From Psychrobium sp. (GTDB lineage Bacteria; Pseudomonadota; Gammaproteobacteria; Enterobacterales; Psychrobiaceae), in contig JBMYWG010000005.1 of NCBI GenBank assembly GCA_049607155.1, positions 6,157 to 70,156 on the forward strand: a stretch of DNA of 64,000 nt, written 5' to 3'. The position numbers were made by a program, and so were the translations under genes. Under the pieces are notes generated by a model. That model made no database searches, was not told the DNA's origin, and worked only from the letters and a program-made list of their open reading frames with translations. Below are positions 6,847-54,837 of the stretch, in pieces (positions within the stretch are counted from its first letter, which is position 1; the number at the start of each line of letters is the position of its first letter).

Positions 6847-7575
6847 ATGATAAAAATAATAAAACGCTCAGCATTTTTAGCGACCTTTATATTTTCGCTG
6901 CCAACATTTGCCGTCACACAAGACATGAATATTCCTGAGAAAGCAGATGCCCTAGCACCTTATCAAGCAAGCTATGCTCTATTTCGCAAAGGTAGTGAGC
7001 TTGGTAAAGGTCACCGCAAACTCAGCAAAGGCGATGTAGGGTACGAACTGTCATCTAGTAGTGCTATCAAATGGCTACTATTATCGGATACTCGTAAAGA
7101 AAATAGTCAATTCTCAATTAAGGAGGGTATCTTTACACCACAAACCTATCGTTATGAACGCACTGGCACAGGCCGAGACCGCCAAGAATCAATTGACTTT
7201 GCTAAAGAAACAGTGACATCTGTTTACAAAAACAACGAAAAGACTTTCCGCCCTATTCAATTGACTTTCGATCCATTAATTTATCAATTAGCATTGCGCA
7301 AAGACTTAATTGATAACAAAAAAGTCCTTTCTTATCACATGGTAAGACGTGGTAAAGAAACCAATTATGTTTTCGAACGCGTTGGCAAAGAAACGGTAAA
7401 AACACCTATTGGTCGTTTTGAAGCAATAAAACTACGCCGTGTTCGTGAAAATTCTAGCCGGAATACGCTAATTTGGGTTGCACCTTCGCTAAATTACAGT
7501 GTCGTAAAGATGACCCAATTTAAAGACGGTCAAGAGCAAGCAGATCTGCAATTAAGCTGGTTGCATTTTGACTAA
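6847..7575 (+). CDS. Secreted hypothetical protein (possibly DUF3108-like; unverified)
   Basis: 242 aa with signal peptide MIKIIKRSAFLATFIFSLPTFA. It is followed by a strong hairpin terminator. Confidence 0.6.
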   Translation: MIKIIKRSAFLATFIFSLPTFAVTQDMNIPEKADALAPYQASYALFRKGSELGKGHRKLSKGDVGYELSSSSAIKWLLLSDTRKENSQFSIKEGIFTPQTYRYERTGTGRDRQESIDFAKETVTSVYKNNEKTFRPIQLTFDPLIYQLALRKDLIDNKKVLSYHMVRRGKETNYVFERVGKETVKTPIGRFEAIKLRRVRENSSRNTLIWVAPSLNYSVVKMTQFKDGQEQADLQLSWLHFD

Positions 7576-48574: not shown

Positions 48575-48604
48575 AAAAAAGCACAGCGTAAGCTGTGCTT
48601 TTTA
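48575..48604. terminator. Bidirectional intrinsic terminator
   Basis: aaaaaGCACAGC-gtaa-GCTGTGCttttt lies between convergent genes and overlaps the truC stop codon. Confidence 0.85.
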
Positions 48605-49375
48605 TTCCTCAAAATAGGCCAACGGTGACGTTGGAATATCGTTCCAGCCCACAGCGTCACAAATGTTTGTAAACGACTCAGGAATTGGTGCTAATAATTC
48701 AATTCCCTCACCTGAAACAGGATGATTAAATCGTAGCTGCGCTGCATGCAACATTAATCGCTGCTCACCTAAATGTGTTTTGAAATATTTATTTTGTTTG
48801 CCATCACCATGCGTAGTGTCGCCCATAATCGGATGGCGCAGATGCGATAGATGACGACGCAATTGGTGCTTACGTCCCGTTAATGGCTTTAGCGCCACTA
48901 AACTAAATCTAGCTTTATCATATTTACCAATTGGCGCATCATACTCTCCGCTTAATAAATGATACCAACGCGTGACAGCCTCCTGCGCCTCTTTATCTTG
49001 CTGAGCATCTTTGTCAGCGATTTTATCAAGCTCTTCTTTCAGCGGATAATCAAGCGTGTCATTACCCAATAAATAGCCGCGCACCATGGCAAGGTAGCCT
49101 TTTTCAACGGAGCGTTCACTAAATTGTTCGCTCAGCAGCCTCGCGACTTCACTCGATAGTGCAAACAGCAATACACCTGAGGTTGGTCTATCTAGACGGT
49201 GTATGGGATAAACATATTGGCCAAGCTGATCGCGCAGCATCGTCATCGCAAAATACGTTTCTTTGCGCGCCAAATACGATTTATGAACCAGTAAGCCTGC
49301 TGGTTTGTTTATGGCCACCATATACTCATCGTGATAGATGATTTCTAGTGGTTCAGAAAACTCCAAATTACTCAT
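48602..49375 (-). CDS. truC: tRNA pseudouridine(65) synthase
   Basis: 257 aa, closely parallel to E. coli TruC: HRLDRPTSGVLLF, TGRKHQLRRHLSHLRHPIMGD. Confidence 0.9.
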   Translation of the reverse strand: MSNLEFSEPLEIIYHDEYMVAINKPAGLLVHKSYLARKETYFAMTMLRDQLGQYVYPIHRLDRPTSGVLLFALSSEVARLLSEQFSERSVEKGYLAMVRGYLLGNDTLDYPLKEELDKIADKDAQQDKEAQEAVTRWYHLLSGEYDAPIGKYDKARFSLVALKPLTGRKHQLRRHLSHLRHPIMGDTTHGDGKQNKYFKTHLGEQRLMLHAAQLRFNHPVSGEGIELLAPIPESFTNICDAVGWNDIPTSPLAYFEE

Positions 49376-49692
49376 CAGTTAAATTGGTTATCTAGCTCTT
49401 TAATTAGCGTTAACAAATGACTCACATCCTTCACAGCGCCTTGCCATGATTCTTCAGCCATTGGGTAGATCTCGAATTCTTGAGGCAATGGTAGGCCAGA
49501 ATCAATAAGCATGGTCATTTTTGGCAGTAAAACAAATTCTAACCATTGGCAAAAAGTTAACGTATCACAACAAAACGGCTCTGTACTCGCTAATGCTTCT
49601 TCGCTCGGCAGTGTTGATTGCCATAGATCTAATCGCACCATCTCCTCGTTGATTTGCTCCAATAACGCTTTAACTTTGTCATTTTGTGCCAT
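49375..49692 (-). CDS. yqcC: YqcC-family protein (DUF446)
   Basis: 105 aa, colinear with E. coli YqcC (..EPFCCDTL.F.QWLEFVLLPKM..LP). It shares a 1-nt overlap with truC, as in the enterobacterial yqcC-truC pair. Confidence 0.8.
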   Translation of the reverse strand: MAQNDKVKALLEQINEEMVRLDLWQSTLPSEEALASTEPFCCDTLTFCQWLEFVLLPKMTMLIDSGLPLPQEFEIYPMAEESWQGAVKDVSHLLTLIKELDNQFN

Positions 49693-49817: not shown

Positions 49818-50858
49818 GTGGATACCATCAACACGCTTAGTGAATTTTTACTCCAATCTGGCTCGCAATATCGCGTTTTTGATATGGGACGTCGCGTAAC
49901 AAAAATTAGCACCGATTTATTTAGTGATTTTGAACACGCAATAACCCCTTACCCTTATCCAATTCAGCAACATGCATTTGTCGCCATCGCATTTTGGAAT
50001 AAGCAACAAAGCAAAGAACACTACGTATGGTTTTTGAAACTGCCACTGGATGAGCGTGGCTTGCTAGAACAAGCTGCTCGCAGTCAGTTTCTAGAACTTG
50101 TCATCACAGCGCTAGGTAAAGCGTTAGACAAAACGCCGTCAAAAGAAGAGCAATCGGCTCTTGATCACAACCCGATTATCTTCAAGCCATCTGAGCAAAA
50201 GCTGGCGGCATTTACCAGCCACATGCGTCATCTCATGAAACTGCCACCAAGCCAATTTATGAGTCCAGCATTGTCTTATCTTCAAGATGAAAGCCAATTA
50301 GATAATTGGCAAAATGTAGGCTATCAAGGACTAGCTGATTTATCAGTAAGGCTTGATGACCCGATGATTGCCGGTGCAATTGAGCGAGTGCTAGACAAGC
50401 TACCACAAGAAAGTTTCTGCGCGCTATGTTGTGCGTTAGAAAATAGCAGTGTCAATACGGCCATGGCAGACAAATTATTGACTATCTTAGAGCAAGCACT
50501 AACAGAAAATAATGCCATCAGAGCCATACACGCGGCCCGCGCTTTATCAAATGCCAAAGGTGAAGGCTTTATTAAACAAGCCTATCAGCAATTAATACAA
50601 AGTGAGCTTGGCGATAACCAACTTGATTTACTTGCCACTATTAGCGGCCGATACTGGACGCAAATCAACGATGAGCAAAGCGCACTTGATTACCTGGAAA
50701 AAGTTGCCGCCGCCAATGTTAGCCAAGATATTTTTGGGCAACTATTTAGCGATCTAGTATTTATACCAAATTGTCGTATTGCGATGTTAAGTGCCCTTAG
50801 AAATCCAAATCGCACGAATCACTTGGCGAACTACATCGCTAAATTTATTGGCGCCTAG
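49818..50858 (+). CDS. Conserved hypothetical protein (possibly DUF3549-like; unverified)
   Basis: 346-aa ORF with a GTG start and no competing frame. Confidence 0.6.
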   Translation: MDTINTLSEFLLQSGSQYRVFDMGRRVTKISTDLFSDFEHAITPYPYPIQQHAFVAIAFWNKQQSKEHYVWFLKLPLDERGLLEQAARSQFLELVITALGKALDKTPSKEEQSALDHNPIIFKPSEQKLAAFTSHMRHLMKLPPSQFMSPALSYLQDESQLDNWQNVGYQGLADLSVRLDDPMIAGAIERVLDKLPQESFCALCCALENSSVNTAMADKLLTILEQALTENNAIRAIHAARALSNAKGEGFIKQAYQQLIQSELGDNQLDLLATISGRYWTQINDEQSALDYLEKVAAANVSQDIFGQLFSDLVFIPNCRIAMLSALRNPNRTNHLANYIAKFIGA

Positions 50859-50868
50859 GACTTACGAT

Positions 50869-51198
50869 ATGGAATTACTTAACATTATCGGCTTACTCAT
50901 TTTAGCGTGCGTCTTTTGGCTGTTTTGGCAAACGCGGGTAATGGCAGAGCTCGCTAAAAGCGAAACAGAGCGTTACGGCGAAAAACACGGCCTACAAATT
51001 CTAGCGCTTGCCCGTACGCAGCTAAAGCCTTCACGCAATGAACACGGTAGGTTTTGTTGGCGAGCAAGTTATCAATTTGAATTTAGTAGTGATGGTGAAA
51101 GCTATTATATCGGACACATTGTGATTAATGGCAACCGAGTCATATCAATTGAAACACCAGCCTATCGCCAGCCGACTGATAATCATGGTGGGTTGTAG
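50869..51198 (+). CDS. Small membrane-anchored hypothetical protein (possibly DUF3301-like; unverified)
   Basis: About 109 aa from ATG 50869, with N-terminal TM MELLNIIGLLILACVFWLFW. The ORF-track start at 50791 would overlap the upstream gene by 68 nt. Confidence 0.5.
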   Translation: MELLNIIGLLILACVFWLFWQTRVMAELAKSETERYGEKHGLQILALARTQLKPSRNEHGRFCWRASYQFEFSSDGESYYIGHIVINGNRVISIETPAYRQPTDNHGGL

Positions 51199-51244
51199 CT
51201 CAAGGTAAGTAATAACACTTTGCAGGTTACTTTTTTACAGGCAA

Positions 51245-51770
51245 AGAAAAAGGGTATAGCGCGATTAACGTTATACCCTTTTATGTGAACATGTTTTGCA
51301 CGTTCTCCTTCATAAGGTCACTCCCTAGAACCATCCCCTTACTCATCCTGAGCTATCCACTTGAGCTGTCCTACTCGTGTCCCTGCTACCGCTCTCGGTA
51401 GTGTCCTTTACTTCCCTGTTACTTCATCCATGTGAATAACCAATCCTGTTATCCTTCGCTGCAATCTAGCAGTGTCCTTGTAAATCCTTTGACCATCTTC
51501 CTTAACAGTCCACAATTAGTGTGTCCTTTCGTCATCCTAACGTGTTATTTCCTATAACTTCCATCCTTAGGCCACAATCCTTGTCAAATAGCTTCTTGCC
51601 ATTTTTAATCCATTGCGATTTTCCTAATCGGCTTGAACATCCTGTCTTTATATCACTTTAACTTGCTTTGGGGTCAATCAAATTATGTTAATTCATTCAT
51701 CCTGAATGACTGATATTTAAATGTATTAACAACCCACTTCCTGTGTTTTGTTATCAGCTCCATCCGATGA
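51245..51770 (-). ncRNA. csrB: CsrB/RsmB-class GGA-repeat small RNA (CsrA/RsmA sponge), boundaries approximate
   Basis: The region has no ORF. By manual count, about 25-29 GGA motifs occur on the minus strand in about 480 nt. Many sit in CsrA-type contexts (CAGGATG x3, AAGGAT, ACAGGATTG, AAAGGACAC x3). Short flanking inverted repeats would place GGA in loops, e.g. CGT-TAGGATG-ACG at 51530-51542. An intrinsic terminator closes the low-coordinate end. The region lies near yqcC-truC, as E. coli csrB does. Confidence 0.7.
51247..51285. terminator. Bidirectional intrinsic terminator (3' end of the GGA-repeat RNA on the minus strand)
   Basis: AGGGTATA-13 nt-TATACCCT. The minus-strand read is followed by UUUUUCUUU and the plus-strand read by TTTTAT. 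Confidence 0.8.
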
Positions 51771-51937
51771 GTTAATAGTAAATCAATATTCACCGAGCAC
51801 AAGGCACCCAAATGACAAAATTGTCTTGGTTATTTTATTGCCACAATCAGAGTTACACACTAAAACACAATATATCAACAACTTAAATCAACCAGTAAGA
51901 GATAGATGGTCAAATTTGCAATCGCCGCTTACATCTT

Positions 51938-51955
51938 TGTGAGAGATCTCGCACA
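51938..51955. promoter_or_regulatory. GacA/UvrY-box-like 18-bp palindrome upstream of the GGA-repeat RNA
   Basis: TGTGAG-AGATCT-CGCACA compared with the TGTAAG-N6-CTTACA consensus. It is a near-perfect palindrome about 170 nt upstream of the last GGA motif. Confidence 0.4.
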
Positions 51956-52127
51956 AGAGGTTTGAGATATTTCGCCGACCGCTCCATTAACCGTAACACA
52001 ATTATTATTCTTTTCTTGGCTAAGATGCCTTAAAAACAGGCGGTTTGCGACTAAAAGTGGCTTGCACTACACCTAACAAAACACTAGGATAACGCTATAA
52101 ATATTAATAAAAATTCTGAGATCCCCT

Positions 52128-52706
52128 ATGTCACCAATTAAACGCCTTTTTCTCGCTAGTAGCGTTGCTTTTTTCTCTGCATTTTCGTTTGCTCAAGAAG
52201 GCTATGTCTCTGACAGTGTTTATACCTACCTTCACACAGGCCCTAGTGCAAAATTTCGCATACTCGGCAGTATTAATGCGGGTTCCAAGATCACCATCGT
52301 AGAACAGTCTGAAGACAAGAAGTACACGAAAGTTGTTGATAGTAAAGGCCGTGAAGGGTGGATCATGTCGGAATTTGTATCGACTCAAGAAAGTCTCAAA
52401 CACCGCTATGATGCATTAGAGTCTCGCCTAAATTCACAGTTGGCCTCTAACGAAGATTTAAGCCGTGAATCTAGTTCCGTTAAAGAGCAAGTAAGCGCGC
52501 TGCAATCTCGTATCGATTCATTAACCGGTGAATTAGCGCAAGCTAAATCGGATGTTACGGCTGCGCAAGATAAACTCAAAGGTGAAGATGAAGAAATTAA
52601 AATTCAGTGGTTTACCCGAGGTGGTATTATGGTCTTTGCTAGCTTTTTAGTAGGTGTTATCGTCTGTTCATTATTCTCTAGAAAGAAAAAACGTTCTAGC
52701 TGGTAA
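52128..52706 (+). CDS. ygiM: YgiM-like SH3-domain membrane-anchored protein
   Basis: 192 aa. A signal peptide is followed by a bacterial SH3 segment (YVSDSVYTYLHTGPSAKFRILGSINAG..GREGWI), a coiled coil, a C-terminal TM helix and a basic tail. This is the same layout as E. coli YgiM. Confidence 0.8.
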   Translation: MSPIKRLFLASSVAFFSAFSFAQEGYVSDSVYTYLHTGPSAKFRILGSINAGSKITIVEQSEDKKYTKVVDSKGREGWIMSEFVSTQESLKHRYDALESRLNSQLASNEDLSRESSSVKEQVSALQSRIDSLTGELAQAKSDVTAAQDKLKGEDEEIKIQWFTRGGIMVFASFLVGVIVCSLFSRKKKRSSW

Positions 52707-52819: not shown

Positions 52820-53881
52820 ATGACAATTCCGGTTTTAATTTGTGATGATTCAAGCTTTGCTCGCAAGCAAATGACCCGCGCCCTCCCCGACAATTGGGAC
52901 GTGAGTATTTCGTATGCAGAAAATGGCGAACAGGCCATCGAAGCCATCAAAGCGGGATTAGGCGATGTGCTCTTTCTCGATTTAAACATGCCAGTTCTCG
53001 ACGGTTACGGCACCTTAGAAGTCATTCAAAAAGAAGACTTACCAACGCTTACTATTGTTGTATCGGGCGACATTCAGCCTTGTGCTCATGCCCGTGTAAA
53101 AGCTTTAGGCGCGCTAGATTTTATTAAGAAACCGACGGATAAAGACAAAGTTAGCGAGCTATTAACTAACTACGGTATTATGCGAGAAGAAGACTGTCTC
53201 GCTGCCGAACTTATTGCCGACAATCAAACTCAGCTGGCGTCAACAGCAAAAGAGCAAGACAAACATTCTATTACCGAATCAGGCATCAACTTAGATCCTT
53301 ATCAAGAAGTATCAAATGTCGCGATGGGACGCGCAGCAGATCTGTTAGCCCGAGTACTTGACGTAAAAGTTCGCTTGCCGATCCCTAAGGTAAACGCATT
53401 AGCATCAAGTGAATTACACATGATGCTAAAAGCCACCGACGAAGTCGATTCCATTTCAGCGGTATGTCAGGGCTATGTAGGCTCAGGTATCGCTGGTGAA
53501 GCGCTGATCTTATTCTACGACTCTTGTTATAAAGAGCTTGCTAAGCTGATGAACCACGATGGTGAAATCAGCGAAGCGGTAGAGCGAGAAATGCTAGTTG
53601 AGCTGTCTAACCTTCTTATTGGGGCCTTCTTGAAAGGCTTCTCAGATCAACTTGATTTGTCATTTAGTCAATCCCACCCTGAGCTATTAGGACTGCATCG
53701 CAATATTGATGAACTCATTAATTCCAACACCCGCAATTGGCAGGAAATCGTTGCGATTGAAATCAACTACGTGATTGAAGATTACAACATCGAGTGTGAT
53801 CTCATTATTTTGATTACCCAAGATTCCCTACCAATACTAAATAACAAGTTGATTTACTTGCTAGACGAGCAAACCGCATGA
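52820..53881 (+). CDS. Response-regulator receiver fused to a CheC-like phosphatase domain
   Basis: The REC domain has LICDDS, FLDLNMP and FIKKP. The C-terminal half carries two CheC-type motifs. DPYQEVSN is followed by Pro 23 residues after the Asn (D-x3-E-x2-N-x22-P). EMLVELSN is followed by Pro 23 residues after the Asn (E-x3-E-x2-N-x22-P). Confidence 0.8.
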   Translation: MTIPVLICDDSSFARKQMTRALPDNWDVSISYAENGEQAIEAIKAGLGDVLFLDLNMPVLDGYGTLEVIQKEDLPTLTIVVSGDIQPCAHARVKALGALDFIKKPTDKDKVSELLTNYGIMREEDCLAAELIADNQTQLASTAKEQDKHSITESGINLDPYQEVSNVAMGRAADLLARVLDVKVRLPIPKVNALASSELHMMLKATDEVDSISAVCQGYVGSGIAGEALILFYDSCYKELAKLMNHDGEISEAVEREMLVELSNLLIGAFLKGFSDQLDLSFSQSHPELLGLHRNIDELINSNTRNWQEIVAIEINYVIEDYNIECDLIILITQDSLPILNNKLIYLLDEQTA

Positions 53882-54837
53882 ACCAAATAGATTACAAAGA
53901 ATTTCATTGGATGGTGTCGATGATCAATAGCATCGACGCGGGTTTAGTCGTGCTGGATAACGATTATATGGTGGAGTCATGGAATGGCTTTATGTATCAC
54001 CATAGTAATATCGATGCGGTAGATGCTAAAGGCAGAAATATTTTTGAAATTTTCCCGAGCTTAGACAAATCGTGGTTTATGCGAAAAGTTGAAGCTGTTA
54101 AAACGATTCAAAATCAGTCGTTTATAACCTGGGAACAAAAACCTTACATATTCCCGTTTAAAAATTACCGCCCTATTACTGGTACGGTCGAGCACATGTA
54201 TCAAAACGTGACGATTTTGCCGCTACCGTCGCTTACTGGCAGCATCGACCAGATTTGCTTAATTATCTATGACGTTACTGATATCGCAGCAAACCGGATG
54301 GAATTACAAAAAGCAAATGCTCAGCTTGAAAAGCTCAATAAGACTGATCCGCTAACACAAATTGATAATCGCAGTGGTTTAGAAGTCAGTGTTAATCTCG
54401 CTAACAAGCACTACAAGCTACAACAAACTATTAGCTCTTTAGTGATGCTCGACATTGATCACTTTAAAAAGATCAATGATACCCACGGCCACCCTGCTGG
54501 CGACGCCATTTTAAAACAGTTGGCCAAGCTCATTAAAGAGACGATGCGCGAGAATGACAGCGTAGCCCGTTATGGCGGTGAAGAATTTGCAATCATTTTG
54601 CACAACACCAGTAGCGACAATGCGAGTCATTTTGTTGAGCGCCTGCGCAAGCTCGTCGAAAATACGCAATTTACCTTTGAAGACACTGTTATCAAAGTCA
54701 CCATCAGTTTCGGTATTGCGCAAATATCAACGAACAATGGCGATAATAAAGCCTGGATGGCCGCTGCTGACCAAGCGTTATATCAAGCAAAGAAACAAGG
54801 TCGTAATCAAGGCGTTGTCTTTGAATCTATGGGTTAA
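53878..54837 (+). CDS. PAS-domain diguanylate cyclase (GGDEF)
   Basis: 319 aa with an N-terminal PAS-like region. The GGDEF domain has an intact RYGGEEF and an RxxD I-site (REND). It shares an ATGA overlap with the upstream REC-CheC gene. Confidence 0.85.
   Translation: MNQIDYKEFHWMVSMINSIDAGLVVLDNDYMVESWNGFMYHHSNIDAVDAKGRNIFEIFPSLDKSWFMRKVEAVKTIQNQSFITWEQKPYIFPFKNYRPITGTVEHMYQNVTILPLPSLTGSIDQICLIIYDVTDIAANRMELQKANAQLEKLNKTDPLTQIDNRSGLEVSVNLANKHYKLQQTISSLVMLDIDHFKKINDTHGHPAGDAILKQLAKLIKETMRENDSVARYGGEEFAIILHNTSSDNASHFVERLRKLVENTQFTFEDTVIKVTISFGIAQISTNNGDNKAWMAAADQALYQAKKQGRNQGVVFESMG

Follow-up and report, generated by a model that had tools for sequence, protein, structure and literature searches.

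The 929-nt intergenic gap at positions 51199-52127 of the window, which is the whole 64,000-nt stretch of contig JBMYWG010000005.1 that we analysed and in whose coordinates all positions below are given, lies between the end of a DUF3301 gene (51198) and the start of an SH3_and_anchor gene (52128). On its minus strand this gap very probably holds the csrB orthologue of the organism, an uncultured Psychrobiaceae bacterium (Psychrobium sp.; Alteromonadales; Enterobacterales sensu GTDB). The proposed orthology is based on homology of the locus and of the control region, not on similarity of the RNA body, and the gene belongs to a known RNA class, of which it is an unremarkable representative that had not been annotated before. 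From homologous systems we infer that its RNA sequesters CsrA and that its transcription depends on UvrY. A first-pass annotation, made from the letters of the sequence alone, had proposed a CsrB/RsmB-class RNA here, and this identity is upheld: CsrB is the only plausible Rfam family and the control region matches that of E. coli csrB. That the gap is free of credible open reading frames (ORFs) was also borne out, since the longest are of 35-46 aa, none of these is conserved among relatives, and no conserved coding signal was found in the gap.

Predicted transcript and control region

The predicted transcript's 5' end was set by alignment to the +1 of E. coli csrB and by a conserved -10 element, and its 3' end by the terminator. 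Its parts and the elements upstream of it are as follows.

51243-51768, minus strand: csrB-like small RNA (sRNA) gene, predicted transcript of ~526 nt with 29 GGA and 0 UCC
51282-51243, minus strand: intrinsic terminator AAAAGGGUAUA-ACGUUAAUCGCGC-UAUACCCUUUUUCUUU, whose stem of 11 bp and inner stem of 3 bp are followed by UUUUUCUUU
51306-51645, minus strand: dense GGA array, ~340 nt, 25 motifs, many in the loops of short hairpins
51312-51353, minus strand: conserved 3' block GCUCAGGAUGAGUAAgGGGAUGGUUCUAGGGAGUGACCUUAU, with the hairpin GGUUCUAGGGAGUGACC at 51332-51316
51645-51768, minus strand: GGA-poor 5' domain, ~125 nt, 4 GGA, with three covarying or conserved hairpins (helices 3-6 of alignment A4)
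51658-51691, minus strand: family-specific hairpin with the invariant loop AUUGACCC; GATTGACCCC at 51679-51670
51775-51802, minus strand: promoter P1, -35 TTGTGC at 51802-51797, 16-nt spacer, -10 TACTAT at 51780-51775
51873-51885, minus strand: IHF-consensus site at -117 to -105, reading TATCAACAACTTA on the plus strand
51925-51933, minus strand: half-site TGTAAGCGG at -165 to -157
51938-51955, minus strand: UvrY/GacA-type 18-bp palindrome TGTGCGAGATCTCTCACA at -187 to -170

The E. coli features with which these are compared were measured on the annotated csrB locus of strain K-12, with positions relative to the transcription start. When the control regions of 13 sequences, drawn from six genera, are aligned, A51768 stands opposite the G at +1 of E. 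coli. The palindrome TGTGCGAGATCTCTCACA is identical in 16 of 18 positions to the inverted repeat of E. coli csrB, TGTGAGAGATCTCTTACA, and is the sole such site in the 64 kb, where 0.02 matches to the E. coli 18-mer would be expected by chance at up to three mismatches; its core is invariant in relatives. In E. coli the box lies at -191 to -174, and Zere et al. showed the palindrome, centred at -183/-182, to be the specific binding site of phosphorylated UvrY (PMC4682653). Four nucleotides downstream of the palindrome lies the half-site, which includes TGTAAG and has its E. coli counterpart in TGTAGGAGA at -168 to -160; the pattern TGT[AG][AG]G is conserved both in the family alignment and in that of the 13 sequences. 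Further downstream, the IHF site fits the consensus WATCAANNNNTTR perfectly; such matches occur 10 times in the 64-kb window. Of six close relatives, four have the site exactly and two with a single mismatch, and it may be compared with an IHF-like match at -105 to -90 in E. coli, where csrB activation requires IHF (Zere et al., PMC4682653).

Promoter P1 aligns with the E. coli GCCTTGTAAG...TTCTAT, the two having GCCTTGT at the -35 in common and differing at the -10, which is TACTAT in the window and TTCTAT in E. coli; among relatives, CTTGT and TAnTAT are found at constant spacing. A consensus promoter/terminator scanner missed P1 because its -35 is weak, and gave only irrelevant sites. A weak -35 is as expected for a promoter that depends on an activator, as P1 probably does.

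At the other end of the gene, the minus-strand intrinsic terminator that had been noted at first pass is real. It is conserved in all nine Psychrobiaceae members examined, and 13 of the 14 pairs of the helix that it forms in the consensus structure (helix 16) are invariant. Its loop exceeds 8 nt, which is why a simple scanner did not report it. The terminator hairpin stands between an A-run and a T-run, so that it can presumably serve both strands; as such a putative bidirectional terminator it can also stop the convergent plus-strand DUF3549-DUF3301 genes. The 3' block that precedes it is nearly invariant in six relatives, and UCUAGGGAGUGAC is retained in the more distant L006, L008 and L009 as well (L numbers denote loci of the survey described below). 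Two tandem RNAs were also considered for this region and rejected, as there is a single box and a single terminator, and the hairpin at ~51384-51403 is without a minus-strand U-run.

The GGA array

The minus strand between 51290 and 51770 contains 29 GGA and 0 UCC (29 TCC and 0 GGA on the plus strand), which is exactly the number that the first-pass annotation had given as approximate. Its motif positions were exact too, with CATCCTG at 51344, 51638 and 51698, GTGTCCTT at 51401, 51472 and 51521, and CGTCATCCTAACG at 51530. Its expectation of well under ten holds for the genome background, the rest of the 64-kb window having per 480 nt a mean of 3.3 TCC or 2.7 GGA and a maximum of 9 on either strand, but fails for the local composition: mononucleotide shuffles of the region contain 13.5 +/- 2.9 GGA (maximum 24) and dinucleotide shuffles 16.6 +/- 2.5 (maximum 25; 2000 shuffles). 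The observed count exceeds every one of the 2000 shuffles and any other part of the window, and the GGA excess is thus real under both shuffle nulls.

Of these motifs, 21 of 29 stand in an AGGA/ARGGA context, and their density, one GGA per 18.1 nt, compares with one per 16.8 nt in E. coli CsrB (22 in 369 nt). A search for direct repeats within the array found no repeat families, and therefore the array is not a recent tandem duplication.

Conservation and structure of the RNA

Six close Psychrobiaceae loci and three more distant ones conserve the csrB-like gene, and the GGA array is likewise retained in the syntenic gap of relatives. Structure and covariation were studied on six alignable Psychrobiaceae sequences, two of which differ very little, and this alignment is also the one from which the structure was obtained. 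Each of the six has 23-30 GGA and 0-1 UCC, and 12 GGA columns are invariant in all of them. With a relative of 82% identity, the nucleotides of GGA motifs are identical at a fraction of 0.84, against 0.67 for the rest of the RNA, which suggests that the motifs are under purifying selection.

RNAalifold predicts 16 helices in which 19 pairs show compensatory changes, as compared to 11.1 +/- 2.1 in column shuffles (a value reached in 0 of 500), while slid controls have only 1-6 compensatory pairs. In the array, hairpins with such changes are found at columns 239-251, 282-301, 320-333, 338-358, 394-409 and 464-480 of A4; for example, the hairpin CGU-UAGGAUG-ACG (CGTCATCCTAACG at 51530) reads AGU-CAGGAUG-ACU in L003. 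As a single sequence, the window RNA has a minimum free energy (MFE) of -126.3 kcal/mol, whereas shuffles have -106.6 +/- 5.2 (z = -3.8). The earlier proposal that GGA would sit in hairpin loops agrees with these predictions: 15 of the 29 GGA (52%) are fully unpaired in the MFE structure, against 31% in shuffles, of which 6 of 200 reach the observed value, and eight are in hairpin loops, against 11% in shuffles, of which 7 of 200 do so; the consensus structure leaves 23 of 29 unpaired. There is thus moderate support for GGA motifs being placed repeatedly in loops or unpaired segments, and as a whole the structure numbers support, rather than prove, that the RNA is structured.

Rfam matches and class membership

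When the whole window is searched at the Rfam gathering threshold nothing is returned, and CsrB appears only in permissive mode, where RF00018 matches the minus strand in two pieces, the better at 25.7 bits (E = 5.8e-5 on 1.1 kb) and the other at 10.5 bits. One lower-scoring match of the same Rfam clan (CL00106) overlapped the CsrB match, and the other Rfam matches in the window are at chance level (E > 2), leaving CsrB as the only plausible family. The RNA is not a member of RF00018 as currently modelled, and the warning of the first-pass annotation that covariance models might miss it was well placed. The same holds elsewhere at this locus, with sub-threshold CsrB scores of 33.3 bits in Shewanella and 23.5-32.1 bits in Psychrobiaceae; in those loci of relatives that were searched, no family other than CsrB (23.5-33.3 bits overall) was reported at E <= 0.01. 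In contrast, the two copies of Vibrio sp. Of7-15 exceed the gathering score, with 122.5 and 100.6 bits, and this ties the locus to bona fide CsrB.

By other standards the window locus resembles a csrB gene closely. Kulkarni et al. (2006) recognised csrB genes as intergenic, AGGA/ARGGA-rich sequences with a Rho-independent terminator, GGA in loops and an 18-bp upstream site (PMC1488887), and all five of these in-silico features are found here. The genome context typical of csrB, the yqcC/syd neighbourhood, is present in so far as yqcC-truC are concerned.

Genes around the gap and the same locus in other genera

The genes on both sides of the gap are listed here in order.

48602-49375, minus strand: truC (NCBIfam equivalog, 365 bits vs a cutoff of 328)
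49375-49692, minus strand: yqcC / DUF446 (Pfam/NCBIfam)
49818-50858, plus strand: DUF3549 gene
50869-51198, plus strand: DUF3301 gene
52128-52706, plus strand: SH3_and_anchor gene (TIGR04211, ygiM-like)
52820-53881, plus strand: response regulator gene
53878-54837, plus strand: GGDEF protein gene

The products of truC and yqcC are 53% and 32.5% identical to E. coli TruC and YqcC, respectively. Both genes are on the strand of the RNA, ~1.5 kb downstream of its gene, and in the annotation of E. coli K-12 truC, yqcC, csrB and syd all share one strand, csrB having yqcC on one side and syd on the other. The order truC-yqcC-csrB of E. coli is thus retained on the same strand, with the DUF3549-DUF3301 pair inserted. 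The first-pass annotation had linked the RNA to yqcC-truC, and this stands with respect to the orthologues and their distance of 1.5 kb, but there is no direct adjacency to yqcC such as E. coli has, as DUF3549 and DUF3301 intervene. The closest named relatives of the DUF3549 protein in a protein search are from Psychrobium species (65% identity), and in the locus scan that of Psychrobium sp. nBUS_13, whose complete genome (NZ_CP179210.1) carries the orthologous locus L003, is 77% identical. A public metagenome assembly also includes an identical contig, and we therefore place the organism among the uncultured Psychrobiaceae.

Several further features lie beyond the csrB control region. A conserved block, ACAAAACACTAGGATAACGCT (52076-52096, plus strand), is found ~35 nt upstream of the ATG at 52128, in the leader or promoter of the ygiM-like SH3_and_anchor gene; the window, L083, L003 and L004 all have it, and L086 has it slightly altered. 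One GGA falls inside the block, so it could be either a promoter element or a place where CsrA binds the mRNA of the neighbouring gene. The response regulator, directly beyond the csrB neighbourhood, has a CheX/CheC-like C-terminal domain, and its gene is kept there in all relatives examined. It is overlapped by the gene of a PAS-GGDEF diguanylate cyclase, so that a c-di-GMP module stands beside the Csr locus; this GGDEF gene was seen only in L001, whose contig is identical to the window.

We surveyed the locus by a DUF3549 profile scan with one genome per species, which returned 80 loci, and complete synteny was observed in three closer relatives obtained via their DUF3549 proteins. A minus-strand GGA array just downstream of DUF3549(-DUF3301) was found in the taxa listed here.

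Psychrobiaceae: 23-33 GGA
Pseudoalteromonas: ~40 GGA in 500 nt, and one locus with 72
Shewanella: 57 GGA over 850 nt
Vibrio sp. Of7-15: two arrays
Bowmanella, Thalassotalea and Colwellia/Cognaticolwellia: 15-26 GGA

Outside Psychrobiaceae, a UvrY/GacA-type box precedes the first GGA by 113-196 nt, the distance being 180-196 nt in 11 of 15 cases. In Methylophaga and its relatives (L011-L046) DUF3549 is present and no GGA array was found near it; therefore, the linkage of csrB and DUF3549 is confined to Alteromonadales/Vibrionales-type genomes among those sampled. The length of ~520 nt, which the first-pass annotation had regarded as long for the family, is not unusual at this locus in Alteromonadales, as the ~500 nt and 40 GGA of Pseudoalteromonas indicate, and part of the extra length of the window RNA is its GGA-poor 5' domain.

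Some of the surveyed loci have peculiarities of their own. In Vibrio sp. Of7-15, csrB is present as a tandem pair of Rfam-positive copies (L063:6439-6758 and 7179-7522), each with its own box, and the arrays of Shewanella (57 GGA; L077:6569-7422) and Pseudoalteromonas luteoviolacea (72 GGA; L072:6395-7336) are of double length. A second array, with 14 GGA, lies beside an N-run in one Psychrobiaceae locus (L006:7171-7466). In two metagenomic relatives a 66-aa minus-strand gene without a Pfam match has been called inside the array (L086:4569-4769 and L087:3971-4171); most likely these calls mistake the sRNA gene for a protein gene.

The GGA-poor 5' domain

Only four GGA fall within the first 128 nt of the predicted transcript. 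In this part the invariant CATAATTTGATTGACCCCA precedes GTTA...TGATAT, which is conserved, and the 19-nt core of the family-specific hairpin is invariant in six relatives. The AUUGACCC loop belongs to helix 6, which is supported by one compensatory pair. Each of the nine Psychrobiaceae loci has the motif, eight of them with a distance of 274-279 nt between it and the box, and it is absent from E. coli csrB and from the arrays at this locus in the other genera surveyed. We think it rather unlikely that the 5' hairpin of Psychrobiaceae CsrB represents either an added functional module on which a partner docks or an internal promoter that gives rise to two isoforms. As a docking site, the C-rich loop could serve a turnover factor or some other RNA-binding protein, or it could pair with a target that has a GGGU-type sequence (an GGGUCAAU-like complement in mRNA leaders). 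If this were true, the 5' module or the second isoform would add a regulatory input to the CsrA sponge, and with an internal promoter the two isoforms would differ in sponge capacity.

Alternative explanations

Several observations weigh against a csrB gene of ~526 nt in this gap. The 25.7 bits of the window match are far below the RF00018 gathering score of 71. Within the 64-kb window, tblastn with the E. coli proteins gave no match to csrA, uvrY or csrD. An nhmmer search with a profile of the six RNA sequences against all other loci matched only L006, L008 and L009, which are also Psychrobiaceae, so that nothing in its sequence connected the RNA body with Pseudoalteromonas, Shewanella or Vibrio; since there is no such similarity beyond the family, homology rests on locus and control region. 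The covariation rests on six sequences, two of them near-identical, with a structure taken from the same alignment. Finally, the scarcity of GGA in the first ~125 nt could mean that a shorter RNA is made from an internal promoter.

This last possibility can be stated precisely. The functional RNA would be of ~400 nt (~51643 to 51243) and start from a promoter P2 with TTGACC at 51677-51672, a 16-nt spacer and TGATAT at 51655-51650 (or TGaTATAAA, as an extended -10), in which case the conserved stretch upstream would belong to a promoter or leader; or else a long and a short isoform would both be made. Both hexamers of P2 are invariant at fixed spacing in six relatives, and L009 retains an equivalent, TTGACC-N18-TAAAAT. 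Moreover, the dense array begins ~40 nt past GATTGACCCC, there are few GGA upstream of it in L083, L084, L086 and L008, and an RNA of 400 nt with 25 GGA fits typical CsrB sizes. Nevertheless, we consider P2 unlikely, because it would put the box at ~-305, unlike E. coli, in which its centre is at ~-183 (PMC4682653), and unlike the other genera, where the first base of the box precedes the first GGA by 113-196 nt (mostly 180-196). P1 and the adjoining downstream CTCATCGGATGGAGCTGATAA, on the other hand, do not vary and can be aligned with promoter and +1 of E. coli csrB, and this colinearity favours, as far as an alignment can indicate, the long transcript over the P2 isoform. The conservation over GATTGACCCC also exceeds what a -35 hexamer needs, and its flanks form a hairpin that has one compensatory pair and, in distant members, different stems.

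A second question is whether the RNA, although a Csr/Rsm sponge, could belong to the csrC or the RsmX/Y/Z subclass instead of being the csrB orthologue. A GGA array and control by GacA/UvrY are indeed common to all of these, and clan CL00106 groups them. However, genes of the csrC type have a weakly symmetric upstream site and lie beside yihA/yihI (PMC1488887, PMC4682653), whereas the window has a near-perfect csrB-type palindrome and the neighbours yqcC-truC, DUF3549, DUF3301 and SH3_and_anchor. Both the site and the neighbours are thus wrong for CsrC, which was rejected. RNAs of the RsmX/RsmY/RsmZ type are much shorter, about 110-130 nt, and have few GGA hairpins; with ~526 nt against ~120 nt (or ~400 nt if made from P2), 25-29 GGA and CsrB as the best match within the Rfam clan, the window RNA was not assigned to them either. 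Taken together, another subclass appears very unlikely. Still harder to believe is that there is no RNA gene at all, only a purine-rich skewed spacer, a decayed coding sequence or a small-protein gene. It is true that local composition alone lifts the expected GGA to ~14-17, and that in L086 and L087 a gene caller put the 66-aa minus-strand ORF into the array. Yet the 29 GGA exceed all 2000 shuffles and their positions are conserved above background, the ORFs of the window gap are of at most 46 aa and unconserved, and the alignments carry indels of 1 and 2 nt. In addition, there are compensatory changes in the hairpins, and promoter, activator box and terminator are conserved in the correct order.

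Probable mode of action and implications

As a csrB gene, the element would work in the way established for its homologues (PMC4682653, PMC1488887, PMC9927453, PMC11882849). Transcription would start at about A51768 from the weak sigma-70 promoter, activated by a phosphorylated BarA/UvrY-type response regulator with the aid of IHF bending, and would end at the terminator at 51282-51243 after ~526 nt. The RNA would then bind many CsrA dimers, titrating CsrA off mRNA leaders, and CsrA-mediated translational control would thereby be relieved, as with CsrB of E. coli, CsrB-D of Vibrio and Pf1-3 of Pseudoalteromonas.

With this gene an annotation gap is filled, as a CsrA-antagonist RNA with a UvrY/IHF-type control region can now be proposed for Psychrobiaceae, including Psychrobium sp. 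nBUS_13 and several metagenome-assembled genomes. The truC-yqcC-(DUF3549-DUF3301)-csrB locus and the control region are conserved from E. coli to Alteromonadales despite an RNA body that cannot be aligned, and synteny together with the box locates csrB where the Rfam model fails, namely in Shewanella, Pseudoalteromonas and Psychrobiaceae. Probable false gene calls over the array, such as the 66-aa ORF of L086 and L087, can also be flagged. The understanding of the Csr system is unchanged by these results, the family-specific 5' hairpin being the only possible new detail.

Comparison with known systems

The closest well-studied relatives are CsrB of E. coli and Salmonella, which the window RNA resembles in the layout of the control region at nearly equal coordinates, in the neighbouring yqcC-truC genes, in GGA density and in having an intrinsic terminator. 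E. coli CsrB is a CsrA sponge activated by UvrY and IHF (PMC4682653). It is shorter, having 369 nt and 22 GGA where the window RNA has ~526 nt and 29 GGA, and the RNA bodies cannot be aligned. Unlike in E. coli, DUF3549 and DUF3301 lie between the RNA gene and yqcC in the window, the SH3_and_anchor gene is found upstream where E. coli has syd, and the RNA has an additional GGA-poor 5' domain with the AUUGACCC hairpin.

In Vibrio the CsrB family comprises CsrB/C/D of V. cholerae and CsrB1/2 of V. fischeri (PMC1488887). The csrB of Vibrio sp. Of7-15 agrees with the window gene in locus (downstream of DUF3549-DUF3301), strand, box and distance from box to array, whereas its copies are shorter (~320-345 nt matched by Rfam), tandem, above the gathering score and without GATTGACCCC. 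Among Alteromonadales, csrB1/2 were predicted in 2006 in Shewanella oneidensis, Colwellia psychrerythraea and Pseudoalteromonas haloplanktis (PMC1488887), and Pf1, Pf2 and Pf3 of Pseudoalteromonas fuliginea are experimentally validated Csr sRNAs (PMC9927453, PMC11882849). Pf1 has 21-25 GGA, a GacA-type box (CGTGAGACATCTCTTACA) and a terminator, a likeness by class that does not imply the same locus for Pf1-3. Like the window RNA, the Csr sRNAs of Alteromonadales are not detectable across genera by sequence, and the syntenic arrays of Pseudoalteromonas and Shewanella fail the Rfam gathering score as that of the window does. The Pseudoalteromonas arrays are denser, with 40 GGA in ~500 nt, and the AUUGACCC 5' domain, which is not found in the other Alteromonadales arrays, is specific to Psychrobiaceae.

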